Shown: positions 1,890 through 61,359, numbered from the stretch's first letter. The stretch is 64,000 nucleotides of DNA from a virus (IMGVR_UViG_3300048599_000194:239177-303176), one strand, 5' to 3'. Notes: generated by a model not told the origin, from the letters alone. Translations and numbers: made by a program.

Positions 1890-1920
1890 AAGATACTTGA
1901 GATTTCCCCAGATGTCAACC
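1890..1920 (-). promoter_or_regulatory. conserved early-promoter-like motif (plus text AAGATACTTG-N14-GTCAACC)
   Basis: Bipartite motif recurring >=22x upstream of minus-strand starts. Confidence 0.55.
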
Positions 1921-1948
1921 AGACTACGTGACTTACGAGTTCACTTTT

Positions 1949-2311
1949 TCAGCCACGATGCTTGAACGTGTTATGAAGTTCGAGGTGAACTCGATCATTC
2001 AGTTCTTTCTTCTTTCTAAGTATTTCTTCATCTTCTATGATTTTGGAAAATACCATTTGCAACTTACTTTCAACATTTCTCCATATCACAGTGAGAACTT
2101 CAAGAGTAACTCGTTCATCAGAATACTCAACAAAATCCCACTTAGGAAAAACTGCCGACTCAGAAAAGAAAAATCCACTATCACTGAAGCATTTCGCGTG
2201 ATTGAATACTGGAATTGCCATACTAAGATCGACCATAATGTTAAGCCGATCAAAGGTAGACACGCCTAAAGAAATCTGATTTGCAAGAATCCTTGATTTA
2301 ATGTTACTCAT
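1949..2311 (-). CDS. hypothetical protein
   Basis: ORF trimmed to Met preceded by AAGGGGTGG SD to remove 137-nt overlap. Confidence 0.5.
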   Translation of the reverse strand: MSNIKSRILANQISLGVSTFDRLNIMVDLSMAIPVFNHAKCFSDSGFFFSESAVFPKWDFVEYSDERVTLEVLTVIWRNVESKLQMVFSKIIEDEEILRKKKELNDRVHLELHNTFKHRG

Positions 2312-2693
2312 ATTTGAACCACCCCTTAATAGGTTTTTCGTCGGCGTTGATGGTATATGTCTTGTTAGATATAGTTGCGCATAAAAGATCGATGAACTTG
2401 TATTGTGAAATATAAAGGCGCGAAGTATCATCAGGCTCACGACCGGAAATGTCGATTTCGATGGTGATCTGATCTTCCCTGAAAATCAGTCGATTACCAT
2501 CATTGCTCTTTTCACATTCGAAGGCGTGAATTGTATGACGACCCTTATCAGAAAATTGAGAGGGGTGTGGATTTTCTTCAATGGCTTCGATAATATCGTC
2601 ATCGTTGAAAAAGAGGTTAGAATTAAATTCGTTATCTTCATCACAGGATCTACACGAACAAGAACTGTGATGGTAAATTGCATAGCATTTCAT
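2304..2693 (-). CDS. hypothetical Cys-rich acidic protein
   Basis: ORF trimmed to MKCY start (ATGA overlap with upstream stop). Confidence 0.5.
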   Translation of the reverse strand: MKCYAIYHHSSCSCRSCDEDNEFNSNLFFNDDDIIEAIEENPHPSQFSDKGRHTIHAFECEKSNDGNRLIFREDQITIEIDISGREPDDTSRLYISQYKFIDLLCATISNKTYTINADEKPIKGWFKYE

Positions 2694-2887
2694 GAAACAC
2701 CTCGATTCAAATAGAGAGGTTCTGGTGTAGTTCGGATTCCCGCGCAAGCCTTCCAGTCACGATCACCGTACTGACGAATAAGAAAAGCCTTTTCCTCATC
2801 GGTCAGGCAATTCTCATCAACTCCGCTAAATTCTCGATAGATTTCTTCATCGATTCCAGAACTGATCATAGTACACCTCCTGTTCAT
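2690..2887 (-). CDS. hypothetical protein
   Basis: 65-aa ORF. Confidence 0.45.
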   Translation of the reverse strand: MNRRCTMISSGIDEEIYREFSGVDENCLTDEEKAFLIRQYGDRDWKACAGIRTTPEPLYLNRGVS

Positions 2888-2888
2888 T

Positions 2889-2919
2889 AAAGATACGTGA
2901 GGCGCGTGAAAAAGTCAAC
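2889..2919 (-). promoter_or_regulatory. promoter-like motif (AAGATACGTG-N15-GTCAAC)
   Basis: Motif instance; overlaps stop of upstream ORF. Confidence 0.45.
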
Positions 2920-3179
2920 TACCAAATATCTTCACTATATAACTGAGGTCTTTCAAGAGGCCGAATATTCTGTCCATTTTTCTTCACCAGTTCAAGAGCT
3001 TCTAATCGATCAAGAAATTTTCCATCTTTTCCAATGAATCCTTGAATTGCATCCTTTGTGACTGGCTTAGGAACACCAAACTTAACCATTTCGACAATTA
3101 CATCGCCATGTCTATTTGGAGCACCAAGTGCATATATCACCCCATCTCGCTTAATTGCAACACCAGTAATTTCATTCAT
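2919..3179 (-). CDS. hypothetical protein
   Basis: 86-aa ORF. Confidence 0.5.
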   Translation of the reverse strand: MNEITGVAIKRDGVIYALGAPNRHGDVIVEMVKFGVPKPVTKDAIQGFIGKDGKFLDRLEALELVKKNGQNIRPLERPQLYSEDIW

Positions 3180-4038: not shown

Positions 4039-4904
4039 TAAGCCCTCAAGCACATAATCAATGGAACCTTACCAGAAAGAATGAATGTTCCATTAAACTT
4101 ATCGACAGGTAATTCAAATCCTGCGGCATTCTTATGTCCGCCACCGCCAAATCTCTTACAAATCACCGACACGTCAAAATCACCAACAGACCTTAATGAG
4201 AATTTGTAAGTGTTTGGAGTATATCTGTAATACGTTCCCGCAAATTGGGCTTTCTTTTCTTTAATGAATTTAGTGAAAAGTGCGTTTCCGAATTCAGACA
4301 TATGCAAGCATGAATTTACCGCCAGCATAGTAAATTCATCAATCGCCAGGGTATGCATTACTTCAAATCCCATCTGGAGATTATGGTCAATAACCTTCTG
4401 AATCACAATACCTTCTGCAATTCGATCAGCTATTGACTTTTCGGCACCCTTAATGAATGCTTCAAGTGTCAGGTCTTCCTGGTAAAGACTATTCTTCACC
4501 GATTTAGAATCGGGAAGTGCAAATCTCCAGAGGTCAGCGTCTTCAATATAATTGATATAATCAGGTCGCGGAATATTTGGGTGAAAATGATCCCATGCCA
4601 ATCCGGCCCCTGATTTGTTCATGTCAAAAATGGCGTTAGGATGCCCTTCTAGGTCGAGCATCGCGCTCTTATGATGGTCGATCACCAGAACACTCTGCAT
4701 CCGCTGTACGAGCTTATCTAGGTCAGATCGAGGATAACTAAAGTCGAGGATGTAAACGTGAGATCCATCATCCAATTCAGGTCTAGGTCTTCCGTAATCT
4801 ACTGGAATATATTCAACATTCTCAGAACCCAATGCCTTATATGCGGCATATGCGGCTCCAAAACCATCCGGGTCATTGTGGTGTAAAACGTATGTCTTAG
4901 GCAT
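4038..4904 (-). CDS. DHH/DHHA1-family phosphoesterase (NrnA-like oligoribonuclease/pAp phosphatase-like)
   Basis: DHH motifs LHHNDPDGFG and VIDHHK; DHHA1 GGGH motif near C-terminus. Confidence 0.7.
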   Translation of the reverse strand: MPKTYVLHHNDPDGFGAAYAAYKALGSENVEYIPVDYGRPRPELDDGSHVYILDFSYPRSDLDKLVQRMQSVLVIDHHKSAMLDLEGHPNAIFDMNKSGAGLAWDHFHPNIPRPDYINYIEDADLWRFALPDSKSVKNSLYQEDLTLEAFIKGAEKSIADRIAEGIVIQKVIDHNLQMGFEVMHTLAIDEFTMLAVNSCLHMSEFGNALFTKFIKEKKAQFAGTYYRYTPNTYKFSLRSVGDFDVSVICKRFGGGGHKNAAGFELPVDKFNGTFILSGKVPLIMCLRA

Positions 4905-4916: not shown

Positions 4917-5678
4917 TTAGTCGATGTGCAACAATGCTTCAAGTTCGCGAATGTCTTCTTTACTTGGTTCAGTCTTCATTATAGCCGTAAGGATCTTTGA
5001 CTTATAGCTATCGTCTCTCCCGATCCAATCTTCAAATACTTGGATAATCGTCTTGATATTGCACCAATATCCCTTTTCCATGTATTTCGAGATTCGATAG
5101 ATTTGTGCAATCGGGCAGTGAATATTTTTCACTGTTAGTATTTTCTTAGAATCGTCTCTAGGGAAATCCTTATCTGCAATTCCTTCAAGATTCTTCAATG
5201 TTTCATTTGTTATCGCGGCTCTTGCGATTGTAAAGTCAAAATTATTGAGAATGTCCTCGACATTCTCAGAAGATAATAGTACATGACCTTCATTTAGAGG
5301 TTTAATCAATTGAATGGGCAAAGAACCACCAAAAGACGAAAGCATTGTATTTGCGGCTTCTGAGGTTCTCTTCTCATAGTATCCAGCTTTCTTTAGTCGT
5401 AAAAGAATCGCTTGATATTGTTCATCACCTCTACAATAAATGTCAATATCTCCACATTCGACTGGATTCTTCACCGTCGAAACGCTGAGTCTAGCAAATC
5501 CACCGCAAATAAATCCATCTTCATGAATTATATTTTCAAAGAGATCCTTTAGCAATTCTTCATTGCGCTGAATCTTTAGATATACATAATCTTTAGACGC
5601 AGTGTACTTCAATTCTACCTTAGTGTCAGTGTTGTCTTTGCTGACTGCCTCTAGCTCTTGAATTAGTCCGTCACTCAT
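4917..5678 (-). CDS. hypothetical protein, possible minimal nucleotidyltransferase fold
   Basis: GG...(16)...DID segment resembling Pol-beta NTase signature; weak. Confidence 0.4.
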   Translation of the reverse strand: MSDGLIQELEAVSKDNTDTKVELKYTASKDYVYLKIQRNEELLKDLFENIIHEDGFICGGFARLSVSTVKNPVECGDIDIYCRGDEQYQAILLRLKKAGYYEKRTSEAANTMLSSFGGSLPIQLIKPLNEGHVLLSSENVEDILNNFDFTIARAAITNETLKNLEGIADKDFPRDDSKKILTVKNIHCPIAQIYRISKYMEKGYWCNIKTIIQVFEDWIGRDDSYKSKILTAIMKTEPSKEDIRELEALLHID

Positions 5679-6475
5679 TATGGAAGCATCTCCTCGATTG
5701 CAAAAATCATTTTCTGAACATCGATAGCATATAGACCAGATGAGTTAATTGAATTTACTTCAATCACTTTTAACCCGTCAGGTGTAATGGCCACATCTAA
5801 CACAAACGCTCTATCAGGTTGATAACAATCAACCATTTTCTGAGCAAATTCAATTATATATTCATCAACTGCAGATGAATAATATACAGTTCCTCCGCTC
5901 TTATATAGAGATTGTGTAATTACTTTCCCATCAACAACAAAAAAACGATATTCGGAAAAAATCTCTTTAGGACTTGCAATTACTACTTTAGTATCTGGAG
6001 TAACAGTTGAATATTGATCACCCATTGCCATGATCTTATTCTTAAAAATCAAAAAATCATCTCGACTTATTATCTCAGCAGTAAAAGCCTTAGTATCTTC
6101 ATTAGGTTTGATGAAAAATTCAGAGATATTAGGAATTAACTCGTCTGAGCATCCAAAATTGACCACTATTGAATCATAATTCAACATATTCTCGCCATAA
6201 TACTTCATCAAATTATCAATTGCACTATTATTGCTAATGAATGCCCCCGGAAAATATCCGCGCCGTACTGCATGTTTGCTTAGACTATATGAACCATAAC
6301 AGTAAATATTCCCATTTGAAGGAACGGGAGATTCTAACTTAATACCATCATCACTATCGGAAAATGGAATTACAGTGCAAAACGAATGAGGTATCCCCAT
6401 TCGCTCTACCGATTCGATAAGTTTCAGATATTGACGATCTGAATCGAACCCTCGCTGTATTAACCAGTGCGCCAT
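5678..6475 (-). CDS. ATP-grasp domain protein
   Basis: C-terminal ATP-grasp-like pattern (EYRFFVVDGKV...LDVAI...VIEVNS). Confidence 0.6.
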   Translation of the reverse strand: MAHWLIQRGFDSDRQYLKLIESVERMGIPHSFCTVIPFSDSDDGIKLESPVPSNGNIYCYGSYSLSKHAVRRGYFPGAFISNNSAIDNLMKYYGENMLNYDSIVVNFGCSDELIPNISEFFIKPNEDTKAFTAEIISRDDFLIFKNKIMAMGDQYSTVTPDTKVVIASPKEIFSEYRFFVVDGKVITQSLYKSGGTVYYSSAVDEYIIEFAQKMVDCYQPDRAFVLDVAITPDGLKVIEVNSINSSGLYAIDVQKMIFAIEEMLP

Positions 6476-6502
6476 CTATAACCTCATTAGTAGTTAAAAG
6501 TA

Positions 6503-6531
6503 ACATACTATGAGAAACCGAAGGCGTCAAC
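6503..6531 (-). promoter_or_regulatory. promoter-like motif, divergent (ACATACTATG-N15-GTCAAC)
   Basis: Variant of recurring motif upstream of ATP-grasp gene. Confidence 0.4.
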
Positions 6532-6536
6532 TAAAA

Positions 6537-7017: not shown

Positions 7018-7046
7018 GAAAAAAAGCTCTAGGTATCCCTAGAGCC
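7018..7046 (-). terminator. rho-independent-type terminator
   Basis: GCTCTAGG-tatcc-CTAGAGC hairpin followed by T-run on minus strand. Confidence 0.6.
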
Positions 7047-7051: not shown

Positions 7052-7804
7052 TCACATTTCAATCCAGCGCCTCCCTGAATTCACTGAAAAGTCATGTACC
7101 ATTGCATCACAGTCGAAAACAAGACACTGTCGATCTAATTCATCCCCATCTCGACCAAGTCCAACATTAATGAATTTTCCATCTGGATGAATTCCACGGG
7201 CCACGAATCTTTCATGATAGTGTCCATGAATTACATACTTCGGCTTGATTTCATCAACAATTGACTGAAGTTTAAGGCGATGACTATATGTAAGGGGATC
7301 CCTCTTGTTATCCAGATAGTCCTCGATGTCTACACTTTCAGGACAATCATGAGAGATAATAATGTCGGCTTTCACATCGACAGAGGAATAAATGTCCGAA
7401 TTAGAAATCTCCTCATTAGGCCACTTGTCTACTCCAAATGTTCGTTTCCAGCCATCAATAGAGTAAGCGCCTCCAACTGCACAAAAAGTATATTCGCCCC
7501 ACTGCCACGTTGTCATATTAGGGTGATAGTAGATTCTGGGGGAAACTTCAGAAACAGGTGCAGTATACTGCGCCAAATATTCATGATTGTCATGGTTTCC
7601 CTTGACAAAGTGAATCTCCATGTCACGGCGAACTAACTCAGTAGACAGGTAATAGAGAAATGCCCTCCCGTCAATGTCATGAGGCCAATATCCAAAATCA
7701 CCAACCGACAGGAGAATTTTACATCCACGCGACTCTGCATAATCAAGAACATTGTCAAGATTATATAGATTCATATGACTATCCCCAAAAATCAAAATTC
7801 GCAT
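7052..7804 (-). CDS. calcineurin-like metallophosphoesterase
   Basis: GDSH, GDFGYW, GNHDN motifs. Confidence 0.65.
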   Translation of the reverse strand: MRILIFGDSHMNLYNLDNVLDYAESRGCKILLSVGDFGYWPHDIDGRAFLYYLSTELVRRDMEIHFVKGNHDNHEYLAQYTAPVSEVSPRIYYHPNMTTWQWGEYTFCAVGGAYSIDGWKRTFGVDKWPNEEISNSDIYSSVDVKADIIISHDCPESVDIEDYLDNKRDPLTYSHRLKLQSIVDEIKPKYVIHGHYHERFVARGIHPDGKFINVGLGRDGDELDRQCLVFDCDAMVHDFSVNSGRRWIEM

Positions 7805-7830: not shown

Positions 7831-7860
7831 AAGATACTACCGCGAGTATCCTAAGTCAAC
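7831..7860 (-). promoter_or_regulatory. promoter-like motif (AAGATACTAC-N14-GTCAAC)
   Basis: Motif instance upstream of 7804 start. Confidence 0.55.
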
Positions 7861-8570
7861 TGCAATTTCTTATGATCAAACGTCCCTTGATTGATCATTG
7901 CCTTAAACCCAGCAGTGTTATACTTCCGATATTTCCCATTCAATTCGCAGGTAATGATAGTATTTGTCACCGTGTCAATTAGGAAACAAATCTTCTTAGT
8001 GCCCCACACCATAGCCGAAGTCGAATCCTTTCGGCGCTGATTTCGATACAGATATCCATCGTATGCAATGCGCTTACCAGAATTAAAAACTTCAAGCATT
8101 TTTGCGATAAGCTCTTCATCGCTTGCAGGCTTGAAATTCTTGTCAATGATATAATATCGCCAAATGAATTGATTCTTTGCATGAGTAGTAGGAGTCACCG
8201 TCATTGATTCCCCATTCTTCTTCATGCAATGAAATTCATTGTACTGCTCAATCGAAACTCCGGGAACTACAATCGGCGTTCGAATTTGACGATTATTCTT
8301 AATCTCCTCGGCAACTTCAGCCAACGTCTTTTCTGGCTTCTTTTGAGTGGGATTCTGCTTTTTCGACTTTGCGATAGATGGCTTGATCTTACGAGCCAAA
8401 ATACTTTCAGTGATTCGCTTATATTCTTCAGTTTTACTCAACGGAATTTCAATAACAACATCAATCGGCTCGGTTGGATCAATGATCTTAGGCTTGGTTC
8501 GATCTACGATCTTAAGCATACGTTCCTCCTCTCTTCTAATTGAACAAAATAGAAAAACTATAATGTCCAA
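7851..8570 (-). CDS. hypothetical basic protein
   Basis: 239-aa ORF with Lys-rich region. Confidence 0.5.
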   Translation of the reverse strand: MDIIVFLFCSIRREEERMLKIVDRTKPKIIDPTEPIDVVIEIPLSKTEEYKRITESILARKIKPSIAKSKKQNPTQKKPEKTLAEVAEEIKNNRQIRTPIVVPGVSIEQYNEFHCMKKNGESMTVTPTTHAKNQFIWRYYIIDKNFKPASDEELIAKMLEVFNSGKRIAYDGYLYRNQRRKDSTSAMVWGTKKICFLIDTVTNTIITCELNGKYRKYNTAGFKAMINQGTFDHKKLQLT

Positions 8571-8612: not shown

Positions 8613-8644
8613 AAGATACTACAAGAAAGGGGTCGTCGTCAACC
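8613..8644 (-). promoter_or_regulatory. promoter-like motif
   Basis: AAGATACTAC-N15-GTCAACC. Confidence 0.55.
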
Positions 8645-11675: not shown

Positions 11676-12048
11676 GTTGAATCTTGTCTCGCAAGGTATT
11701 CAATCCATCCATAAATGCAATTTCACCTGCAACATATGAAGGCTTAGTTAAAATCACATGATTCATTTCCTTATGATGAGCATACATATATGCGTTAAAA
11801 TCCATCATGTCGGTTAATTGGTCCATATTAATTTCAACATCACCATCACCTTCAATCGTAATAGTAGAACTATCTCCAAAATCATCATCCTTACACATCT
11901 TCAATATTTCATCCAATACTTCATATAAACTATCTTTATTCAGTTGCCTCATCAAATTCAGTAAATCAATAATAGTCAGTTCAACATTAATGTCAGTGTA
12001 TGCATTTTGAAATCTATCGCCGCGATCAACACTGTGCTTAAATCTCAT
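11638..12048 (-). CDS. hypothetical acidic protein
   Basis: 136-aa ORF. Confidence 0.5.
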   Translation of the reverse strand: MRFKHSVDRGDRFQNAYTDINVELTIIDLLNLMRQLNKDSLYEVLDEILKMCKDDDFGDSSTITIEGDGDVEINMDQLTDMMDFNAYMYAHHKEMNHVILTKPSYVAGEIAFMDGLNTLRDKIQHDFCEDIFDGNI

Positions 12049-12686
12049 CCCAGCCTCACGTTCTGAGTAGGTCGAATACTCTCAGAAATATACTTTTGAG
12101 TGTCTTTTGAGAGTGTTACTACATTACACAACGTAAGTAGTTTAGGATCAGCCTCTTGACATTCCTTCATCAGTCGAATCATACTAACACAATCATCAAA
12201 TGCCATGTGAGCATTCTCAGAACTTGTAATAGCTGATAGTTTTCCAACCCCATAATGCTTCTTGAACATTGGAAGAGTATCTCTGAATATGCAATTATTC
12301 TCAAGTCCCAAGAAATCACAATACCACTGTACGAATGTTTTCTCGAACTTTGCATTATGTGCAATACAAATATGGCCTTTTACGAATTCGTAAAATTCTT
12401 TGAAAGCTGTAAACGTATCCGGTGAATCTTCCACCATTTCATTACTAATCTTAGTCAATTCCGTGATTTTATACGGGATCCTAATTGGAGACTTTGGGGA
12501 AAATGCAAATGGCTTGGCGAGAGTATGGAAAATTTCATTCCCTGTCGGAGTCACCTTAATAGCGGCATATTCAATAATTCTAGCGGCTTTCCACGGAACG
12601 AATCCAGTGGTTTCAAAGTCAATAAAGACAATTGTTTTTGTTTCGGATAGCGCGAGGTGCGGTATATCCCAGCTACGTGGCTCCAT
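12045..12686 (-). CDS. DEDDh-family 3'-5' exonuclease (DnaQ/RNase T-like)
   Basis: Exo motifs IDFETTG, AHNAKFE, H...AFDD. Confidence 0.65.
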   Translation of the reverse strand: MEPRSWDIPHLALSETKTIVFIDFETTGFVPWKAARIIEYAAIKVTPTGNEIFHTLAKPFAFSPKSPIRIPYKITELTKISNEMVEDSPDTFTAFKEFYEFVKGHICIAHNAKFEKTFVQWYCDFLGLENNCIFRDTLPMFKKHYGVGKLSAITSSENAHMAFDDCVSMIRLMKECQEADPKLLTLCNVVTLSKDTQKYISESIRPTQNVRLG

Positions 12687-12711: not shown

Positions 12712-12742
12712 AAGGTACTACTAATCTTAAAGATCGTCAACC
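12712..12742 (-). promoter_or_regulatory. promoter-like motif variant (AAGGTACTAC-N14-GTCAACC)
   Basis: Same spacing as canonical instances. Confidence 0.45.
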
Positions 12743-12782
12743 AAATTCTCCAGTAATTTAATTACATGCTAGAATAATTCTT

Positions 12783-13214
12783 ATGGGTGGACCACATATC
12801 AATTCTAGATTTGACGACGACATACTATTAGCCAGATCACTACACAGATTACAGCATCCAAAAAAAGAAAAAACTAAAGAACAAATAATAAAATCTTATT
12901 GGCATTCAATGAATTCAAGAATCAAAAAAGGCTGTTATCTAGAAAAAGGCATTAAGGTTGAATGGACATTTGAAGAATTTTCTAATTGGTTTAATCTTAG
13001 ATGGCGATTATTTGAAGAGATCAAATCTGCAGGTGAAACCCCATCAATAGACAGAATATATTCAAATGGGAATTATTGTGAAGCAAATTGTAGAATGATA
13101 CCGACTTCAGTAAATAGCGCACTTGGTGAAGTAAACATGCTAATTAGTCGAATGAAGACTGTTCAAGCCTTCTTAAAGAAAAATGAACATTGGTTAAAAG
13201 AGGAACGGCTGTAA
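12783..13214 (+). CDS. HNH homing endonuclease-like protein
   Basis: IDRIYSNGNYCEANCRMIP...N resembles HNH/AP2-type motif; opposite strand to neighbours. Confidence 0.55.
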   Translation: MGGPHINSRFDDDILLARSLHRLQHPKKEKTKEQIIKSYWHSMNSRIKKGCYLEKGIKVEWTFEEFSNWFNLRWRLFEEIKSAGETPSIDRIYSNGNYCEANCRMIPTSVNSALGEVNMLISRMKTVQAFLKKNEHWLKEERL

Positions 13215-15234: not shown

Positions 15235-15792
15235 TCACTCCGGATGCCGTACTGGTGTTAGAGTTCTAGCATTCATGTATTTCTCAATTTCTGCAAATGT
15301 ATATGGGCGTTGCTCCGGGTGAGTATCGATTCCAACGTCCATTCGCTTATACTGAGTATCGTCAACTTTATGCCCGTGGTAATGACCATGCAACTGCCAA
15401 CTACCATCTTCGGCGTCTTTCCATGAAGCCATTGGAAAGTGACATGAATGAATCAATCTATTTCCAACTCGATAAATTTTCGAATCGAATATATTCTCCC
15501 GACCAAAAGCGTCAACCACTTCAGAATAATAATCGTGATTTCCAAGTATCAAGATAATTCTGCCATTTAGACGATTTCGATATTCACGGATCTTAGATTT
15601 TGAAGCAAATGCAAAATCGCCATGATGAATTACAACACCATCAACTGGAACTAAAGAGTTCCAGTTGTTGATAATTGCCTCGTTCATCTCATTCACATCA
15701 GAATATACTCGATTTGGTTGATAGCGCAAGATTGACTTGTGCTTCAAGTGAGTGTCTGATGTGAAAAACGTGTTTTCAGGTTCTAGCGTCAT
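15235..15792 (-). CDS. calcineurin-like metallophosphoesterase
   Basis: FFTSDTHLKH, HHGDFAF, GNHDYY motifs. Confidence 0.6.
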   Translation of the reverse strand: MTLEPENTFFTSDTHLKHKSILRYQPNRVYSDVNEMNEAIINNWNSLVPVDGVVIHHGDFAFASKSKIREYRNRLNGRIILILGNHDYYSEVVDAFGRENIFDSKIYRVGNRLIHSCHFPMASWKDAEDGSWQLHGHYHGHKVDDTQYKRMDVGIDTHPEQRPYTFAEIEKYMNARTLTPVRHPE

Positions 15793-16429
15793 CTTCCTTT
15801 ACTTTCCTATTAAATGCGACAAATGCCGACTTCATTGAAAGTAGAGTCTTATATCCAAGGATCTTAGAAATTTCCTCAGGACTCATACCATTCGAGTGTA
15901 GTTCTTTGTACTTGTTGAATTTCTCTTCTAGACTCACTTGATTATCCAACCGAAGAGGGAACAAATCAACCCCATGCCGAGTACGGAGCTTCGAAATATA
16001 CGAAGCGGCGCTAGTCGGAGTCTTGCCGATATTGTACTTTTCAGTCAATTCAGCCAAAGACATTCCAGCATTCCAATCATAACTAATGTTAACAACTCGA
16101 TCATAATCAGACTGATCATTTTTCTTGGAAATTTCAATCAACTCGGGATTAGAATCAATGATTCTCTTAAGTTTACTCTTACAGATTCCAAGTTCTTTGC
16201 AAATCTCGACGTGTGTCTTCTTTGCAATCAACATTCCCTTAATTGTATCCGCAGATTCATTTAGGCGCATATGCTTTCGAGAGGCAAGTTCCTCAGAAGT
16301 ATAAAGCTGATGAAACATCTGCGATACTAGCTGACGAGACACATTGAAATGCGCCCTCACTTCACTTTCGCTCGCCAAAGGATTCGCCTTTGCATAATCC
16401 TTAATCTGTTCAGAAATCGTCTTTTCCAT
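15776..16429 (-). CDS. hypothetical protein, possible DNA-binding regulator
   Basis: 217-aa ORF, helical; HTH-like segments; weak. Confidence 0.4.
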   Translation of the reverse strand: MEKTISEQIKDYAKANPLASESEVRAHFNVSRQLVSQMFHQLYTSEELASRKHMRLNESADTIKGMLIAKKTHVEICKELGICKSKLKRIIDSNPELIEISKKNDQSDYDRVVNISYDWNAGMSLAELTEKYNIGKTPTSAASYISKLRTRHGVDLFPLRLDNQVSLEEKFNKYKELHSNGMSPEEISKILGYKTLLSMKSAFVAFNRKVKEDDART

Positions 16430-16465: not shown

Positions 16466-16496
16466 AAGATACTACGTAAGTGTTACTTTGACAACC
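16466..16496 (-). promoter_or_regulatory. promoter-like motif variant (AAGATACTAC-N14-GACAACC)
   Basis: Motif instance upstream of 16429 start. Confidence 0.5.
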
Positions 16497-18054: not shown

Positions 18055-18057
18055 GGA

Positions 18058-19079: not shown

Positions 19080-19084
19080 CAATT

Positions 19085-45542: not shown

Positions 45543-45615
45543 TGCACGATGAGGGACTCGAACCCACGGTGTTCTGCGTGTAGGGCAGATGCTTTAGCCG
45601 CTAAGCTAATCGTGC
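45543..45615 (-). tRNA. tRNA-Val(UAC) (C33 instead of U33)
   Basis: Cloverleaf; anticodon loop CCUACAC; one T-stem mismatch. Confidence 0.55.
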
Positions 45616-45741
45616 ATGGTGACATGGCTAAACCGAAATTCCATGTCGTAAGTTGAGCCGTTATACGGTATAGCTCATCTATTTTTTGAGAGGTTGCAGT
45701 GCATCCACCAAGAACCCACCTCACAAGAATGGGGATGTTCA

Positions 45742-45823
45742 ATTAAAATAGACCGCACAGGACTCGAACCTGTCATCTAGGAGTGTCCACCTAAGCATTG
45801 CCCAGAATGCTCCACCGCCTATC
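45742..45823 (-). tRNA. atypical tRNA-like element (class-II-like; 5' acceptor not resolved)
   Basis: Perfect T-arm ACAGG-TTCGAGT-CCTGT, extra arm, anticodon-like hairpin GCATT-CUGGGCA-AATGC; no partner for 3' acceptor strand. Confidence 0.3.
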
Positions 45824-45825
45824 TA

Positions 45826-45896
45826 ATTGAAGTTGGGACGAGAGGATTCGAACCTCTGTTAACCGAGTCAGAGTCGGCCTTCCTGCCACTAGAAGA
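45826..45896 (-). tRNA. tRNA-Gln(CUG)
   Basis: Cloverleaf; anticodon loop CUCUGAC; U1-A72. Confidence 0.75.
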
Positions 45897-46018
45897 CATC
45901 CCAAGTAAACTGCGCGGAATTCCTATTATCTCATCTTCAGTCTCGGTATTCGCCCCCGATTAATCTGAATACTCCTTCATAGGCGGTTTCGAATTCGTGT
46001 TCCCGCTGACACGCACCT

Positions 46019-46228
46019 TCAACTTACTGTTAATTGTTCCGTCATACTGGTCGATGATCTATATATTAACTGACCTCCATTACTACAGTTTCTAATAACT
46101 CCGAGTCGATATGGAGATGTTCTAGTGAGTTTTAACTTAACGTCACATTCAGAACAGTATCCAGTAGACTCATATGGATCATACGAATTCAACGTACTGA
46201 TTTCTTCTCCGCACATTGGACACTTCAT
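46019..46228 (-). CDS. small zinc-ribbon protein
   Basis: 69-aa ORF with CPMCGEE...CSEC. Confidence 0.4.
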   Translation of the reverse strand: MKCPMCGEEISTLNSYDPYESTGYCSECDVKLKLTRTSPYRLGVIRNCSNGGQLIYRSSTSMTEQLTVS

Positions 46229-46388
46229 TATTTCCTACTTCCCGCATTCACATGGTTCTTTTCCACATCCAGGGCATAAACCCTCTCTTAGTCTCTTATG
46301 TATCTTACATTCTGCAATCGTATCGAATCGAAACGGTCTGCCGTTAATATGAGATGTTCCATCGAGATCCGTCTCTTTTCCAGTTGTT

Positions 46389-46544
46389 CTAGGCTTCCGA
46401 TTCATTCAACAATTCCTCTAATTCTTTTTTCATTCGAATACGAGTCGATCCAGTATCTCGTTCCCTTGGGTCATATGGATCATCGTTAGCACCATATGGT
46501 TTCATTTTAGGTGGAGCGTGTCTTGTTGGCTTATTTCTTTTCAT
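46389..46544 (-). CDS. small hypothetical protein (51 aa)
   Basis: Read by eye; below ORF-track cutoff. Confidence 0.25.
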   Translation of the reverse strand: MKRNKPTRHAPPKMKPYGANDDPYDPRERDTGSTRIRMKKELEELLNESEA

Positions 46545-46563
46545 ATTAACTTCCTTTACTTAG

Positions 46564-46647
46564 TACCGGAGGAGGGACTCGAACCCTCACGCCCTTTCGG
46601 GCAACGGATTTTGAGTCCGTCGCGTCTACCAATTCCGCCACCCCGGC
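46564..46647 (-). tRNA. tRNA-Leu(CAA)
   Basis: Class II cloverleaf; anticodon loop CUCAAAA; resembles E. coli Leu tRNA. Confidence 0.8.
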
Positions 46648-47035
46648 ATCATGGAGTTGAGGGAAATCGAATCCCTGTCCTAAACAGCTTCAAAAAAGAC
46701 ATCTACAAGTTTAGTTTCTATTTTAATCTCACAGAATCAATCGTCTAAAAACAAACTAGAGATTCTGCCAGTCCATTAATCTCGGTTACATGCATGAACT
46801 ACTTTGCAACCTATCCAATATGTTGAACGCTTGCGACTATTATGGAATTTCGTCGTAGCGCCTCGCCGTTACTTAAGCGGCGAGAGCGTAAGAGTAGGAC
46901 TCTTCTGCATTTATTGTTTTCAGGTTTTTACGAGGCCACCTGACCCTCGACTTGCATTCTCATTCTACCCTATTCAGTCGAAACCTTTACAACCCCTTAA
47001 TCCCTTAAAGCGTCAAGTCACGATTTAAGAGAAGT

Positions 47036-47118
47036 GCGCAAGGAGGGACTCGAACCCTCACGCCCGAAAGGGCACTACCACCTCAAAGTAGCGGGTCTAC
47101 CAATTCCCCCACCTGCGC
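47036..47118 (-). tRNA. tRNA-Leu(GAG)
   Basis: Class II; anticodon loop UUGAGGU. Confidence 0.75.
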
Positions 47119-47122
47119 ATAT

Positions 47123-47311
47123 TCACAAATTCAATTCTTTCAAGAATTCTCTCGAAATTTGACGACTACGTCTAATTTCTTCTTCAGTTATTGGAGTTTC
47201 TCTAACAGATTCAGATCTTATTAATCCATTTGAATATCTAGAATTTTCTTCATGTCTTTTCAAGATTCGATCAATTTCTGACATTCCATCATTTTCGTCA
47301 ATGTCGCTCAT
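47123..47311 (-). CDS. small acidic protein (62 aa) between tRNAs
   Basis: Start with GGAGGG SD; longer ORF-track version would overlap a tRNA. Confidence 0.4.
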   Translation of the reverse strand: MSDIDENDGMSEIDRILKRHEENSRYSNGLIRSESVRETPITEEEIRRSRQISREFLKELNL

Positions 47312-47328
47312 CAATATACCCTCCAGAG

Positions 47329-47412
47329 TGCGCAAGGTGGGACTCGAACCCACACGCCCTTACGGGCACCAGATCCTAAGTCTGGCGCGTCTACCAATTC
47401 CGCCACTAGCGC
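47329..47412 (-). tRNA. tRNA-Leu(UAG)
   Basis: Class II; anticodon loop CUUAGGA; U-U at 5-68. Confidence 0.75.
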
Positions 47413-56110: not shown

Positions 56111-56214
56111 TGGGGGAGGCCGGATTCGAACCAACGATCAAGAAGTCGGACCATTGTCTGCTGACGCATTGACTGGCACTGCCTCTTAGCTTTAAGCCTC
56201 TAAGCTACTCCCCC
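56111..56214 (-). ncRNA. oversized tRNA-like RNA (104 nt)
   Basis: Perfect acceptor GGGGGAG/CTCCCCC, canonical D-arm GCTT-AGAGGCTTA-AAGC, T-arm with two G-U pairs; ~48-nt multi-hairpin insert replaces anticodon arm. Confidence 0.35.
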
Positions 56215-56402
56215 ATTTTCCTGAAATCCTACCAGAAAGTGCCGTTTCTAGATAACGACTAAAGATTAAAACACCTTTCTAGCATTTCTCATTCTGACAA
56301 TCTTTCTTGTTGCAAAATGAGTTTTTCGACTTTCCTATTATTCAAATAAGAGGATTGAAAAACAAAGACTGAAAACAACCACTAGTCTAGGATTTCAGGA
56401 AG

Positions 56403-56475
56403 CTGGGGATGCAGGGATCGAACCTGCGACGGGTTGGTTAACAGCCAACTGCTCTACCTACTGAGCTAATCCCCA
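56403..56475 (-). tRNA. tRNA-Asn(GUU)
   Basis: Cloverleaf; anticodon loop CUGUUAA; U1-A72. Confidence 0.8.
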
Positions 56476-56704
56476 ATTTAGTCACAACCCCTGTTTCCAG
56501 AGGCCAAATTAATGTACTTCCTAAATGAAGTTAGAGGGTTCGATGCCTTTATTCATTTAGTTTTCGAAAGTCGTTTTCGTTCGATTTGATGAGGTATTTG
56601 CAGATCGTAAACCGACTGCCAGAGCCTACCCGACTTACTTTTTCGAATGTGGATCCATATCCGTGCCTAAAATCGACAAAGCACTACATTCTAGAAGTAC
56701 AAGT

Positions 56705-56777
56705 GGACACATGTGGGATTCGAACCCACGACATCCTGCGTGCAAGGCAAGCGTTCTACCAACTGAACTAATGGCCC
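56705..56777 (-). tRNA. tRNA-Ala(UGC)-like with mispaired acceptor stem (possible pseudogene)
   Basis: D, anticodon (CUUGCAC) and T arms fold; acceptor has 2 mismatches. Confidence 0.4.
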
Positions 56778-56963
56778 ATTTCAAATGTTCGGAGTTTCCT
56801 GCAATCTTTTTAGAATCTAGACATTGCAATATCGTTGATTCCTGTTAGTGCAGTTTTCGTCTAATAGTCCGAGGGATTAGTGGACTTCAAAGACTTTTTC
56901 GAGTTTCTATACAAAGATGCCGGAAATTTCCCCCGAACGACCTTAACTCTAGAAACTCCGAAG

Positions 56964-57035
56964 TGGAGAAGATGGGACTTGAACCCACAACAATCTGCTT
57001 GCAAAGCAGGCGCTCTACCATTGAGCTACGACCCC
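56964..57035 (-). tRNA. tRNA-Ala(UGC)
   Basis: Anticodon arm CCTGC-UUUGCAA-GCAGA like E. coli alaT; G3-U70 present; two acceptor mismatches. Confidence 0.6.
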
Positions 57036-57198
57036 AGCAACTAATTGTCGATGACCACTACACCAAAATACCTTTCGAGGGGCTATGAGTAGTGTCTTTC
57101 GCTGTTTTGTTTGGTTCCTAACAGTACCTCATGTTTTTCGGATTGCATTTCTGCTAGATTCTATAGCCAAAAAAAGAATCTTCCTAGTCATCGACAAA

Positions 57199-57272
57199 GT
57201 GTGCAAGGGTGGACTCGAACCACCGACCTTCTCCGTATCAGAGAGACGTTCTAACCAACTGAACTACTCGCA
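57199..57272 (-). tRNA. tRNA-Ile(GAU)
   Basis: Cloverleaf; anticodon loop CUGAUAC. Confidence 0.8.
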
Positions 57273-57356
57273 CATTAACGGTTCCAGAGGGAGGACTACC
57301 TCCTATCCAACTAGCTATCTTGGAATTATTCACGAACATTGAATTCGTCTCTGAAG

Positions 57357-57432
57357 TGCCCCAGGTCGGACTCGAACCGACCACCTTTGGATTTTCAGTC
57401 CAACGCTCTGACCTCGTATGAGCTACCGGGGC
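57357..57432 (-). tRNA. tRNA-Phe(GAA)
   Basis: Cloverleaf; anticodon loop CUGAAAA. Confidence 0.8.
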
Positions 57433-57560
57433 ATTGAGTCTTGATGTGTATTTGGCTGACTCTTCGCCATATGTGATGCACATCTCACCTTGCAACATCT
57501 ACCGATTATCTATTGCACGTTCTTTATCAGATTCTTTCGAATCATCCTCGGAAGAAGCAG

Positions 57561-57632
57561 AGCACTGAGTGGGAGTCGAACCCACGTCTTCAGATTGGAA
57601 ATCTGAGATAATAGCCGTTATATGACCAGTGC
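57561..57632 (-). tRNA. tRNA-Gly(UCC)
   Basis: Cloverleaf; anticodon loop UUUCCAA; U73. Confidence 0.8.
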
Positions 57633-57646
57633 ATTGACTATCACAG

Positions 57647-57720
57647 TGCGTTAGGAGGGAATTGAACCCCCGACCTAGAGCTTAGAAGGCTCCCGCTCTA
57701 TCCAACTGAGCTACTAACGC
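57647..57720 (-). tRNA. tRNA-Arg(UCU)
   Basis: Cloverleaf; anticodon loop CUUCUAA. Confidence 0.8.
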
Positions 57721-58007: not shown

Positions 58008-58038
58008 TAAGATACTAGAGCTTTTCTTTCGAGTCAAC
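58008..58038 (-). promoter_or_regulatory. promoter-like motif upstream of tRNA array (distal of a tandem pair)
   Basis: AAGATACTAG-N15-GTCAAC. Confidence 0.55.
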
Positions 58039-58110
58039 TTTTTTCTTCGTTGATTTTGGAGAGAAGCTCGGATTACCAAGTTTTTGATTTCTCATTACCC
58101 TGGTAATCCT

Positions 58111-58141
58111 AAGATACTATGTCCCACCGGGGCAGTCAACC
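58111..58141 (-). promoter_or_regulatory. promoter-like motif upstream of tRNA array (proximal of a tandem pair)
   Basis: AAGATACTAT-N14-GTCAACC. Confidence 0.55.
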
Positions 58142-58283
58142 ATTTTTTGGCTGAGGAAGTTGGATGTCCCTTCCTAGTATCTCTTCTAATTTTTATTATA
58201 TCATCAAAAATCAAAAAGGTACAGGAATATTAACATCACGTCTGCGATAGAAGTATTTAGAAGAAAATTTTCAAAAATAAAAA

Positions 58284-58721
58284 TTATTCATCGTCTTCCC
58301 CGTCCTGATCACAGTTGTATATCCACGGAAATACAAAAGCGCATGCTATTGGAGTTGCAAATGAATTCAATAACTCACTTAGTTCGTCATTAGGTTTATC
58401 TAAACAAGTTAAATCGTCGGCATCTAATACTATATAACCACTATCAATACTCAAATAAATTGTAGTTCCTGTATTATAGAAACAATTTTCATCAAATACA
58501 ATCCACCATTCGAAATCATCAATTATTTTCTTACTAGTATTAGTTTTTAGTTCACTTCCGCATATTTTACAAAATTTCCCATCTTCTTGAATATGTCCAT
58601 TAATACACGTTTTTGTTTTAATGTCTTCATATCCATGTAATTCTATTACTCTTCGCTCAAGTTCACTGAGATTGTCTTTAGTTAGTTCCCATCGAAACCC
58701 AATGTGCAGTTCAGTTTGCAT
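58284..58721 (-). CDS. hypothetical protein with zinc-ribbon and acidic tail
   Basis: 145-aa ORF. Confidence 0.45.
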   Translation of the reverse strand: MQTELHIGFRWELTKDNLSELERRVIELHGYEDIKTKTCINGHIQEDGKFCKICGSELKTNTSKKIIDDFEWWIVFDENCFYNTGTTIYLSIDSGYIVLDADDLTCLDKPNDELSELLNSFATPIACAFVFPWIYNCDQDGEDDE

Positions 58722-58740
58722 TGATTAATCCCCCAAATGT

Positions 58741-58775
58741 AAAAAAGGAAGAGGCAATTGTAGCCCCTTCCTTCT
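58741..58775 (-). terminator. rho-independent-type terminator
   Basis: GGAAGGGG/CCTCTTCC imperfect hairpin followed by T7 on minus strand. Confidence 0.5.
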
Positions 58776-58800
58776 TAGTGAAGAAAATCTCTTTCGAGAA

Positions 58801-59211
58801 TTACTCCTCGTCCTCTCCCTGCAAGGAGGCAAACTGAGCGCGAAGCTCTTCGAGCGACTTGCCCTTGAGTGCGTCTCCTTCCTTCTCGGAGATAAGAGCC
58901 AGAAGCTCCTGTGCCTTCTGCTTACGCTCAGCGGCCTTTGCCTTCTTGTCCTTCTCAGCGGCAAGAGTCTCAAAGACATACTTGACAATGTCCAGCTTTA
59001 GCTTGACGATTGCAGAAGCCTTTGTTGCCCTGGAAGCAATCAAGCCCTCTCCCTCAGAATCAGAAGTCTTAGCTTCCTTGCTCAGAGCGCGGTAGATTTC
59101 GTCCAACTGCTCCAGCTTCAACTCCCACAGATCATAGAGGGAGATTGTTCCCTTGTAGGTGAAGGTGATCTTGGAACGGAGAGCCTTTTCAAAAAGATTG
59201 TCAATTGACAT
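58801..59211 (-). CDS. hypothetical protein (GC-rich 3' end)
   Basis: 136-aa ORF; RS-rich ORF in the alternative frame judged spurious. Confidence 0.45.
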   Translation of the reverse strand: MSIDNLFEKALRSKITFTYKGTISLYDLWELKLEQLDEIYRALSKEAKTSDSEGEGLIASRATKASAIVKLKLDIVKYVFETLAAEKDKKAKAAERKQKAQELLALISEKEGDALKGKSLEELRAQFASLQGEDEE

Positions 59212-59237
59212 TTCTATTGTCCTTTGTTTATGTGTGA

Positions 59238-61271
59238 TTAGAACTTGATCTTAAGAGTGCGATTCACTCGACCGCCAACTCGCACGGTGAGTTCGTCTCG
59301 CTTGGTTGCCGAGAAACCAACTCCAGACAACTGAGAATCAGTGGGTTCCACCTTCATCTTGCCGCCAAGAGCCGAGAATACTCGCTTGTGCTTCATGAAT
59401 TCATCTCGAAGGTATTCATTGAAGAATCCATTTGGGCTTTCCTCGTTGACAGCGCCCTTCAACATGAAGAAGTAGTGGCGATGTCCAATTCCGTCCTGTT
59501 CGTCCCAGTAATTGGGCGAGTACATGCAGACATGCACTGGATGGAACTGCTGAGTCATGAGATTCCAGGTCTTTCGAGGGGTCATTGTCGAATTAATGAC
59601 CGGGATGAGCTTGAATCCGTTTGCACGAGAATACTCAACCTTAGCCACATCGACGTATTCGTTACCCCTTAGATTCCTAGCACATTCGAACTGATGAATT
59701 TCTCCATCAAATTCGATCTCTGCAGTGAATCCACCCTGACTAGTGCGACCAGCGAAATTATGAACCTTGAATTCATATACACCTTCCTGCAATCGATTAC
59801 GATCAGGCCAAGTGATATTCTCTACTGCAATTGCCTTACCAGGGACTCGAATGTCTACATCCAGATTACCTCCAGATCGATGACCATTGCGCTGTCCAAA
59901 GTAAATGTGATTGTGATTAGGCTCGTGAGCATGTGCATCGAAATCGATGTTATTGTCGCCCTTATCGTTCCACTGAATAGAGAACCTCAAAACTCCATCC
60001 ACCTTACCACCAGCGGACTTGACCCGCTCCTTCATGGAATCCGTCATGTTTCCATTGTAAGCCCAGGAGAATCCATTGTTCCACTTGAATAGGGTCTGAC
60101 TCTCCTTATTCTCAGGTGCAATCAGAGAAACCATATTCTGAGAATGACGATTCTCCAAATACACTTCTAGCGAAGTTGCAGTGGGTAGAACGCCCTTCAA
60201 GAAATCATCAATTGAGATTTCCTCAACTCGACCAAGCGACTTCTGACTAACTCCCTGGTCTTCCTTCATTTCATCGAAAATCGAACCCTTGGTGAGCTTA
60301 CGACTAACCTTTCGATCTGCGAATAGAATGTTCTGGATGGTAATGTCGTCCAGCGTTGCGTGACGACGACCCAGAGAATCAATTAGACCCTCTTCAGTCA
60401 ACATCTTTTCCGCATCTTCGATCATCTTCTTGGTAAATACTTCCTTAGGTCGCATGTAATTGCTAGGAGCAACAACCTTCTCATAGCGAGTAAGAGCCTT
60501 GTCAAGATCCATTCCCTCGGAAAGATCAATCAAAAGGGTTCCAATCGAATGATTGCGAATCTTACCAATTACAGGTCCAACTGCAACGGACTCAACCCAG
60601 CAGAACAAATCCTTATGCTTAGAAGAATTATACTTCTTCTGAAGCATCAAGAACTTCTCAAGATTAGCCTTCCACTCCTCTCCCTTGTAAAGGGACTTCT
60701 GGCGAATGAGATCCAATACAGTCTCAACTGAATCGATGCTGAGTTCCTTAAGAGAACGCTCGAAAACCTGACGAGTTGAATTGTATTCACTCATTGCACT
60801 TCCGATAGTCTCGCGTCCAGTGTACTTGAACTTGCCATCAATGGTGCAATGGAAGTGATTCCATTCCTTGGTCTTTCCATCTTCGCCCATTTCATAGGAC
60901 TTGTCGGTGCCAAAGCTCAAATCACGAGTGACGAATACATTCTCAATTCGCTTGACCTTAACGAACTTTGCGAGTGCATCCACGACGGCCTGCATATCAG
61001 AATCGCCAGCATCAAAATCCCAAATGGTAGTAACGACGCCACCATCGAGGGAAACCACATTTCCGAATGCCTTGACGAAATGCCTGCAACAAGAACAATC
61101 GAACTCCCTACGCTTGCGATACATCGGATTCGTACCCTCAGGGAACGAATCAAGATAAACATTCCAAAGCTCATCCTTATCGAGAGCAATGGTAAAAAGA
61201 GTATTGATGTTCTTGGTCAACTGCTTGACATGCGCCTGCAACCGAGCATTAAACTGCTTAAACGGGATCAT
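59238..61271 (-). CDS. large hypothetical protein (677 aa)
   Basis: Long ORF, GC above local average; family not recognised by eye. Confidence 0.55.
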   Translation of the reverse strand: MIPFKQFNARLQAHVKQLTKNINTLFTIALDKDELWNVYLDSFPEGTNPMYRKRREFDCSCCRHFVKAFGNVVSLDGGVVTTIWDFDAGDSDMQAVVDALAKFVKVKRIENVFVTRDLSFGTDKSYEMGEDGKTKEWNHFHCTIDGKFKYTGRETIGSAMSEYNSTRQVFERSLKELSIDSVETVLDLIRQKSLYKGEEWKANLEKFLMLQKKYNSSKHKDLFCWVESVAVGPVIGKIRNHSIGTLLIDLSEGMDLDKALTRYEKVVAPSNYMRPKEVFTKKMIEDAEKMLTEEGLIDSLGRRHATLDDITIQNILFADRKVSRKLTKGSIFDEMKEDQGVSQKSLGRVEEISIDDFLKGVLPTATSLEVYLENRHSQNMVSLIAPENKESQTLFKWNNGFSWAYNGNMTDSMKERVKSAGGKVDGVLRFSIQWNDKGDNNIDFDAHAHEPNHNHIYFGQRNGHRSGGNLDVDIRVPGKAIAVENITWPDRNRLQEGVYEFKVHNFAGRTSQGGFTAEIEFDGEIHQFECARNLRGNEYVDVAKVEYSRANGFKLIPVINSTMTPRKTWNLMTQQFHPVHVCMYSPNYWDEQDGIGHRHYFFMLKGAVNEESPNGFFNEYLRDEFMKHKRVFSALGGKMKVEPTDSQLSGVGFSATKRDELTVRVGGRVNRTLKIKF

Positions 61272-61329
61272 TATTTCACCTCACAAAAAGTGACTTGATA
61301 TAGGGTACCTTACCCATCATCGCACGGAC

Positions 61330-61359
61330 AAGATACTACAATAACAGTGCAAGGTCAAC
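61330..61359 (-). promoter_or_regulatory. promoter-like motif
   Basis: AAGATACTAC-N14-GTCAAC upstream of 61271 start. Confidence 0.55.

Follow-up and report, generated by a model that had tools for sequence, protein, structure and literature searches.

Which RNA polymerase would read a promoter-like sequence that recurs throughout a phage region known only from metagenomes? The question is raised by the 64-kb stretch IMGVR_UViG_3300048599_000194:239177-303176 (~39% G+C), hereafter the window, by which the whole of the analysed stretch is meant. An earlier description of this DNA, the original prediction, had drawn attention to a bipartite motif, said to occur at least 22 times and always on the minus strand, that could be interpreted as a sigma70-type promoter. 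Here we find that this motif, termed class I, is present in exactly 22 copies, and argue that these are probably functional promoters that are read by the primary-sigma holoenzyme of the host, and which serve early and auxiliary genes of a large phage. It should be emphasized that promoters of this kind represent a known strategy of capturing the host RNA polymerase and not a new mechanism.

Results

Occurrence and placement of the class I motif

All 22 copies of the class I motif, (G/A)GTTGAC-N14-RTAGTATCTT, are on the minus strand (Table 1). A search for GTTGAC-N17-GTATCTT that tolerated at most one mismatch returned 21 matches, all minus, and none on the plus strand, whereas 100 dinucleotide-preserving shuffles averaged 0.05 matches and never gave more than one; the strict form of the motif given in the original prediction matched eight times against 0.00 expected. 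The 22nd copy, at 8613-8644, has a spacer that is longer by one nucleotide (18 nucleotides (nt)). The half-sites display a similar strand bias, with no plus and 18 minus copies of GGTTGAC, and two plus and 14 minus copies of TAGTATCTT. A scan with the generic sigma70 consensus was uninformative (80 matches vs 72 expected) and was discarded; only the specific motif stands out. Querying the literature with the sequence words of the motif produced noise only.

Every copy is located within the 16% of the window that lies outside open reading frames (ORFs) and transfer RNA (tRNA) genes, or at most overlaps the preceding ORF by its final bases. Between positions 1 and 45264, the protein-coding part, there are 22 gaps of at least 45 nt, of which 18 hold a class I copy; gaps that lack one are occupied by intrinsic terminators or are associated with the small number of plus-strand genes. 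The overall density is approximately one promoter per 3 kb. Almost all genes in the window are on the minus strand, and in one relative, the contig L039, the same motif is used on both strands; thus, the minus-strand placement in the window simply mirrors the orientation of its genes. The number and strand of the copies were therefore correctly called in the original prediction, the first (1890) and last (61330-61360) coordinates also agreeing, and so were the tandem copies ahead of the tRNA array (58009 and 58111) and the two within it (55531 and 48763). The motif is clearly not equally frequent in coding sequence, nor on the two strands.

Architecture and predicted start site

A position weight matrix built from 21 window sites gives the consensus t-(G/a)-GTTGAC, 11 uninformative bases, and Y-Y-R-T-A-G-T-A-T-C-T-T, with no sequence information in the flanks and the 14-nt spacer. 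Read as a promoter, this comprises a -35 element TTGAC(n), a 17-bp spacer and a -10 element TATCTT, a geometry that supports the sigma70 architecture originally proposed. TTGAC is invariant in 20 of 21 window sites and in 39 of 39 sites from relatives, with variation at the sixth base; the spacer is 17 bp at 21 sites and 18 bp at one, no copy displaying any other spacing. TATCTT matches TATAAT at four of six positions, and T-12, A-11 and T-7 are invariant. Conservation beyond the hexamers, another feature that had been pointed out, is real in the window and in the relatives: C-9 and T-8 do not vary in 19/21 window sites and 37/39 relatives' sites, T-15 A-14 G-13 are equally fixed, and the -14 base is A in 17 of the 21 window sites and never G. 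Positions -43 to -38 (-7 to -3 before the -35 element) are A-rich, as in ccaaaaaatGGTTGAC, and resemble a proximal UP subsite.

At the seventh position after TATCTT, 15 of the 21 window sites have A and four have G (purine in 19/21), and 29 of the 39 relatives' sites have a purine. Most start codons follow a GGAGG-type Shine-Dalgarno sequence and lie 16-36 nt downstream of the -10. At four independent sites (19050 and 42112 in the window, and one each in the contigs L038 and L039) an ATG that lacks a Shine-Dalgarno sequence is positioned exactly 6 nt after TATCTT. Leaderless translation needs a 5'-terminal AUG, and these four ATGs, by virtue of their fixed distance, thus provide an internal ruler that would set +1 at the seventh base after TATCTT, the start that the original prediction had put at ~7 nt and to which the purine preference also points. 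Their positions likewise indicate that the -10 is TATCTT and not the overlapping TAGTAT; a MotA-type layout with TAGTAT as the -10 would misplace both the +1 purine and the leaderless ATGs, and was rejected. The four sites are predicted to produce leaderless mRNAs. One of them precedes ORF 18825-19043, where a very short leader had been deduced from a distance of ~6 nt; the distance is correct (6 nt), although a leaderless mRNA is the better description. For three of the leaderless ORFs, no homologues were found in the relatives or in PHROGs. Directly upstream of the 19050 site, at 19082-19110, is a near-consensus promoter, TTGACA-17-TAAAAT (11/12), and the two may form a tandem arrangement ahead of the leaderless ORF.

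Conservation in related contigs

An exact-motif scan of IMG/VR returned singletons at about the chance number, together with multi-copy contigs from samples 3300035208, 3300037067 and 3300014204 that contain two to six class I copies each, mostly co-oriented with the genes. At its right end the window overlaps with the contig L034 (77% nucleotide identity). A motif-independent search, in which the 677-amino acid (aa) protein encoded at the right end of the window was the query, retrieved L164 (88% identity) and L205 (68%), where the tRNA array is likewise preceded by tandem promoters, two copies in L164 and three in L205. In eight orthologous promoter pairs, which include those from L164 and L205 that were retrieved by protein homology and not by the motif, the boxes are identical at 133 of 136 positions (98%), compared with 43 of 112 (38%) in the spacers; at the 61330 promoter, for example, the boxes are identical in L034 and L164 and the spacer is scrambled. 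This pattern, in which the boxes are kept and the spacers have diverged, is what would be expected from selection on protein-DNA contacts rather than from recent duplication. The 39 non-redundant relatives' sites also share flanks that were not in the search pattern, R before GTTGAC and Y-R-T-A before GTATCTT.

The genes served in the window are of an early or auxiliary type, and include rIIA/rIIB, PARP, NADAR, Apyc1, Thg1, the CCA enzyme and tRNAs. In the relatives they encode five ART-PolyVal ADP-ribosyltransferases, NAMPT, NUDIX, NADAR, RNA ligases, ThyX and a helicase. All the served genes seen are non-structural, the contigs of the lineage that were compared holding no structural-gene region.

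A second scan of IMG/VR with motif variants, and a scan with the 677-aa protein, identified no long contig of the lineage. There is no motif in 41 kb of the huge phage LR756504, which provides the best match to the CCA enzyme, and no TTGAC-N18-TATCTT in more distant phages with the 677-aa gene; thus, the motif appears to be specific to a narrow lineage. When 185,579 species genomes were scanned for use of the motif by a host, only chance-level singletons were obtained; the exception, L099, is an 8-kb contig with promoters in common with L042, located in an 'Ignavibacteria' metagenome-assembled genome (MAG) bin from a Southern Ontario landfill, a data set described in PMC12607003. L099 and L045 (JBAZEQ010000109.1 and JBAZEQ010000106.1) are both 8-kb contigs with phage promoters in the MAG 'Ignavibacteria bacterium SO_2017_LW3_13', and L099 has three identical promoter copies in common with the IMG/VR contig 3300035208_000466. 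Both represent phage DNA that was assigned to a bacterium, through contamination or mis-binning or as a weak hint at the host, and provide no evidence that bacteria use the motif. Two contigs of Gemmatimonadota-type MAGs (L056 at 976-1006 and L089 at 4619-4649) have in common two conserved promoter-like sites separated by ~270 nt; the second, GGTTGACAGGTG...GTAGTATCTT preceded by an A/T tract, is the single bacterial example of the extended sequence. A comparison of L014 with L034 revealed ~6.2 kb of extra DNA in L014, including a 1229-aa ORF without a Pfam match, between two orthologous class I promoters, indicating that gene content varies in promoter-bounded blocks.

Other transcription signals

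A further and rarer group of promoter-like sites, class II, consists of an extended -10, TG(C)TATAAT, without a -35; five are on the minus strand, of which four are clearly intergenic, whereas the fifth, at 22407-22415, is so only with 22366 as the start of the downstream ORF. The latter site abuts a terminator, either by coincidence at a gene end or as the origin of a very short transcript. The site at 58195-58203 is conserved as TGCTATAAT in L164 and TGTTATGAT in L205, and in the relatives four of four class II sites point the same way as the class I sites and precede start codons. On the plus strand, the gene for an HNH endonuclease (12783-13214) is inserted opposite to the flanking minus-strand genes, and its extended -10-like site would suit a leaderless start. 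Six strong intrinsic terminators, each a hairpin followed by a T-run, lie between genes on the minus strand. The polymerase that transcribes this DNA thus appears to recognise canonical extended -10 elements, to use rho-independent terminators and to be of the bacterial multisubunit type. The T4 late motif TATAAATA is absent from the window; with ~1.5 copies expected per strand, this avoidance is not significant.

Three non-coding segments next to class I sites stand out. A block of ~130 nt at 58150-58290 (TCTAAATACTTCTATCGCA...GTTAATATT...TGATATAAT), upstream of the tandem promoters, is better conserved between the window, L164 and L205 than the neighbouring ORFs, and might serve to regulate the tRNA array. 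The 58-nt leader of the 677-aa ORF (61272-61329) is almost invariant in the window, L034 and L164, beside a promoter spacer that is scrambled; it contains a GGGTA-AGG-TACCC hairpin, in which the relatives display a U-G-compatible change, and may be a cis-regulatory RNA. The start of the transcript from P1, the first of the tandem promoters (58040-58104), contains a stem-loop, GGATTACCA...TGGTAATCC, that can be formed from different sequence in L164 (3245-3316) and L205 (1732-1804), the covariation being weak and drawn from three sequences only.

Table 1 Coordinates of class I sites, class II candidates and intrinsic terminators in the window
Feature	Position	Strand	Context
Class I	61330-61360	minus	Ahead of 677-aa ORF 59238-61271; ATG 58 nt after -10, conserved leader between
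Class I (P1, first of tandem pair before tRNA array)	58111-58141	minus	Orthologues in L164 and L205
Class I (P2, second of tandem pair)	58009-58039	minus	~290 nt before first tRNA (57646-57720)
Class I, within tRNA array	55531-55561	minus	Upstream of PP-loop-like ORF 54898-55503
Class I, within tRNA array	48763-48793	minus	48 nt before tRNA-Tyr (48630-48714)
Class I	43174-43204	minus	Upstream of ORF 42647-43144
Class I	42610-42640	minus	ATG of ORF 42262-42600 9 nt after -10; leader nearly absent
Class I, -10 TATTTT	42112-42142	minus	ATG of ORF 41776-42105 exactly 6 nt after -10 (predicted leaderless); terminator directly upstream
Class I	35645-35675	minus	Upstream of Thg1-like ORF 34821-35621
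Class I	27074-27104	minus	Upstream of rIIA-like (24919-27036) and rIIB-like genes
Class I	21075-21105	minus	Upstream of ORF 20747-21046
Class I	20712-20742	minus	Upstream of ORF 20234-20656
Class I, -35 GTTGAT	19576-19606	minus	Upstream of ORF 19085-19558
Class I	19050-19080	minus	ATG of ORF 18825-19043 exactly 6 nt after -10, no Shine-Dalgarno (predicted leaderless)
Class I	18025-18055	minus	Upstream of ORF 17320-18006
Class I, -35 GTTGTC	16466-16496	minus	Upstream of ORF 15776-16429
Class I, -10 TACCTT	12712-12742	minus	Upstream of ORF 12045-12686
Class I, 18-nt spacer (sole spacing variant)	8613-8644	minus	Upstream of ORF 7851-8570
Class I	7831-7861	minus	Upstream of ORF 7052-7804
Class I, -10 TATGTT	6502-6532	minus	Upstream of ORF 5678-6475
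Class I	2890-2920	minus	Upstream of ORF 2690-2869
Class I	1890-1920	minus	Upstream of ORF 1429-1866
Class II candidate TGATATAAT, no -35	58195-58203	minus	Upstream of P1/P2
Class II candidate TGCTATAAT	51911-51919	minus	Intergenic gap of tRNA array
Class II candidate TGCTATAAT	49359-49367	minus	Between tRNA-Gly and ORF 48795-49337
Class II candidate TGCTATAAT	45281-45289	minus	Upstream of PARP-like gene 43978-45264
Class II-type site TGCTATAAT	22407-22415	minus	Followed within 4 nt by strong terminator hairpin and T8 run (22375-22415)
Class II-like site TGCTAGAAT	12767-12775	plus	7 nt before ATG of HNH endonuclease ORF 12783-13214
Intrinsic terminator	58740-58771	minus	9-bp GC-rich stem and T7; conserved in L164 and L205
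Intrinsic terminator	42141-42168	minus	After tRNA-His; abuts 42112 promoter
Intrinsic terminator	30978-31006	minus	After SPFH/Band-7 gene; -20.2 kcal/mol, T8
Intrinsic terminator	22375-22403	minus	After ORF 22419-22952
Intrinsic terminator	20176-20211	minus	-24.2 kcal/mol, T7
Intrinsic terminator	7018-7046	minus	After ORF 7052-7804

Gene content of the window and its likely host

The window is the auxiliary or host-takeover part of a large uncultivated phage. Its recognisable proteins include rIIA-like and rIIB-like proteins, a WGR-PARP protein, a CCA-adding enzyme, a Thg1-like tRNA-His guanylyltransferase, a PP-loop protein, NADAR, the Apyc1 anti-Pycsar nuclease, several phosphoesterases, an SPFH protein and a CorA-like protein. 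The tRNA array (42172-57720), detected with ARAGORN and confirmed by Rfam, contains 40 tRNA genes and a transfer-messenger RNA (tmRNA) gene at 46652-46996 with the tag AEESYSYALAA; Rfam adds a 104-nt tRNA-like match at 56111-56214 that ARAGORN missed, and the tRNA-His has a length of 83 nt (ARAGORN) in a window that also encodes the Thg1-like enzyme (34821-35621). The PARP gene (43978-45264) encodes, in a phage, a complete protein with WGR, PARP regulatory and PARP catalytic domains, and together with the NADAR and Apyc1 domains, and the ART-PolyVal, NAMPT and NUDIX proteins of the relatives, it makes up a large NAD/ADP-ribose toolkit.

No near-identical DNA was found among 50,697 phage records, an exact-protein contig lookup with rIIA returned no record and an rIIA-based search of IMG/VR no match. 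The protein matches are distant, with 24-29% identity for rIIA and, for the CCA enzyme, 36% to an uncultured 636-kb phage. The tmRNA tag and, as far as binning can be trusted, the MAG bin may hint at a host in the wider Fibrobacteres-Chlorobi-Bacteroidetes (FCB) group. The strong GGAGG Shine-Dalgarno sequences and the TGnTATAAT sites argue against Bacteroidota proper, given the promoters and translation of these bacteria. Shine-Dalgarno usage in an Ignavibacteriota locus was uninformative for inferring the host.

Discussion

The most likely reader of the class I sites is a bacterial multisubunit RNA polymerase carrying a primary sigma factor of the sigma70/sigmaA type, probably the unmodified host holoenzyme. 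Sigma region 4 would contact the perfect -35, (G)GTTGAC, and the rigid 17-bp spacer would set region 2 on TATCTT, in which the key bases A-11 and T-7 are kept, while the A-rich tract at about -43 to -38 could serve the C-terminal domain of the alpha subunit as a proximal UP subsite. Transcription would begin with the purine 7 nt past the -10. The majority of transcripts would then have a leader of 10-30 nt with little but a GGAGG Shine-Dalgarno sequence, a few would begin at the A of the ATG and be leaderless, and the units would end at hairpin-plus-T-run terminators or continue into the unit that follows. The near-invariance of the motif probably results from selection for numerous promoters of uniform strength and strict -35 dependence, by which those of the host are out-competed, as occurs at T4 early promoters.

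Several points weigh against this view. We infer the start sites and the early timing from the DNA. The fixed C-9 and T-8 depart from TATAAT and T-15 A-14 G-13 are also fixed, none of which is demanded by canonical sigma70 contacts, and the same genome has canonical TGcTATAAT sites, so the two types of -10 may be read differently. The comparison with sigma factors, moreover, uses the Escherichia coli/Bacillus subtilis consensus, which may not be that of the host, and as part of the phage genome was covered it is possible that a sigma or co-factor is encoded elsewhere. The invariant bases could be explained in three ways: the sigma of the host may be idiosyncratic; a factor of the phage, an operator or a modified polymerase may be involved; or selection may favour a weak -10, by which the class would become strictly -35-dependent and easily shut off. 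The last of these has a precedent in AsiA, which discriminates between promoter classes by a similar logic (PMC2988021).

It could be argued that the class I sites are read by an RNA polymerase that the phage has re-specified, through a sigma70-family factor, a co-activator or ADP-ribosylation, with the extended -10 YRTAGTATCTT as the phage-specific determinant or, in a variant of the proposal, as the operator of a shared shut-off repressor. Such a model would accommodate the invariance of the non-consensus T-15 A-14 G-13 C-9 T-8 across 60 sites, the existence in the same genomes of a separate -35-less class with a canonical -10, the restriction of the motif to a narrow lineage and its absence from distant phages with the 677-aa gene. 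The lineage is also rich in ADP-ribosyltransferases (PARP in the window and five ART-PolyVal proteins in the relatives), and some T4 early promoters are stimulated by Alt modification (PMC2988021). The -35, however, is the exact primary-sigma consensus at the optimal 17-bp spacing, and the genes served are those needed first, before any phage protein exists. Furthermore, no sigma or RNA polymerase gene was found in the ~190 kb of window and relatives: Pfam scans of the window and ~120 kb of relatives, which represent part of the genome, revealed no sigma70-family or RNA polymerase domain, and a phmmer search with an approximate RpoD C-terminal fragment, which would miss gp55-like sigmas, revealed no sigma. 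Indeed, T4 early promoters are conserved beyond the hexamers and are nevertheless read by the unmodified host holoenzyme without a phage protein (PMC2988021). Extra conservation alone is thus no evidence for a phage factor, and we regard re-specification of the polymerase as unlikely. It is similarly doubtful that YRTAG-TATCTT is a code for phage-specific control, whether by a sigma, a co-factor or an ADP-ribosylated polymerase, or through a weak -10 that lets a single AsiA-like or repressor protein switch off the early programme while the TGcTATAAT class takes over.

A polymerase encoded by the phage itself, either single-subunit and T7/N4-like or the multisubunit non-virion type of phiKZ/AR9-like jumbo phages, would be in keeping with a large phage that has many gene-expression genes of its own, and promoters of phage polymerases are typically as invariant as class I. 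The bipartite layout with its uninformative spacer, the UP-like A-tract, the +7 purine and the hairpin-plus-T-run terminators are, however, hallmarks of sigma-dependent transcription. The phage-polymerase promoters known to us are contiguous blocks, hairpins or AT-rich -10-only elements, and the Pfam scans, which covered part of the genome, found no RNA polymerase domain in the window or the relatives, making this explanation extremely improbable. That the copies are instead a dispersed repeat or recombination cassette, conserved through homologous exchange and gene shuffling, is suggested by their density, by the small ORFan genes that they flank and by the ~6.2-kb difference between L014 and L034, which lies between two conserved promoter copies; such modules, the promoter early stem-loops (PeSLs), are documented in T4-like phages (PMC2839356, PMC4122927). 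The likeness extends to repeated early-promoter sequences between variable genes and to copy-bounded indels between relatives (PMC2839356, PMC4122927). In contrast with PeSLs, identity here is limited to the two boxes, which offers too little continuous homology for recombination and gives no indication that copies were duplicated recently. Only one or two of the 22 copies have a stem-loop immediately upstream (clear at 42112, marginal at 19576), and in orthologues the boxes are retained whereas the spacers are not, a hallmark of selection on contacts with protein. Identity with PeSL cassettes was rejected, as a composite stem-loop unit is lacking and homology does not extend beyond the boxes, and the recombination model as a whole appears very unlikely.

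Reading by the host holoenzyme places class I closest to the early promoters of T4. In both cases there are many copies (~1 per 3 kb) in a non-structural region, before rII genes, ORFans, tRNAs and host-takeover enzymes, the promoters are of sigma70 type with an A/T-rich upstream tract and a consensus beyond the hexamers (PMC2988021), and the genome is rich in ADP-ribosyltransferases. The T4 early promoter is, however, of the 'UP/-35/TGn/-10' kind with a near-consensus -10, whereas here the -10 is TATCTT and an invariant TAG (T-15 A-14 G-13) replaces TGn. The -35 also differs, being GTTTAC in T4-type phages and TTGAC in class I. Kinship to T4 is not demonstrated by an rIIA identity of ~24-29%. 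Two other promoter types were considered and rejected for class I: the T4 middle (MotA/AsiA) class, as the upstream box is TTGAC at -35 with 17-bp spacing and not a MotA box (TGCTT-type) at -30, and the extended -10 (TGn) class, as T-15 A-14 G-13 has never a G at -14, TGn being confined to class II.

Among cellular promoters, those of E. coli sigma70 and B. subtilis sigmaA share with class I the TTGAC, the 17-bp spacer, T-12, A-11 and T-7, the purine 7 nt downstream and the UP-like A-tract, but cellular sets have a far lower information content, and lack the rigid spacing and the fixed C-9 and T-8. The Y-R-T-A-G segment resembles the '-16 region' TRTG of Gram-positive promoters, with A and not G at -14. 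The presence in one genome of a -35-dependent, weak -10 class I and a -35-less TGnTATAAT class II is also reminiscent of T4 AsiA, by analogy and not by membership. Thermus phage P23-45 gp39 follows a comparable logic of -35-dependent versus extended -10 promoters. AsiA blocks recognition of the -35 and spares promoters that have other elements (PMC2988021). No AsiA- or gp39-like gene was identified in the DNA analysed.

The motif converts a 64-kb phage region known only from metagenomes into a transcription map, with 22 class I promoters, approximately five class II candidates, six terminators and three to four predicted leaderless mRNAs. It also serves as a sequence tag through which fragments of the same lineage can be recovered, as illustrated by the contigs from 3300035208, 3300037067 and 3300014204, and by those mis-binned in the 'Ignavibacteria' MAG, and the class I sites are candidates for strong portable promoters. 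Conceptually the strategy repeats that of the T4 early promoters, and the value of the map would be descriptive unless the odd -10 encodes a phage-specific switch. With respect to the biology of the phage, the motif points to a host that has a canonical primary sigma factor and Shine-Dalgarno-dependent translation.

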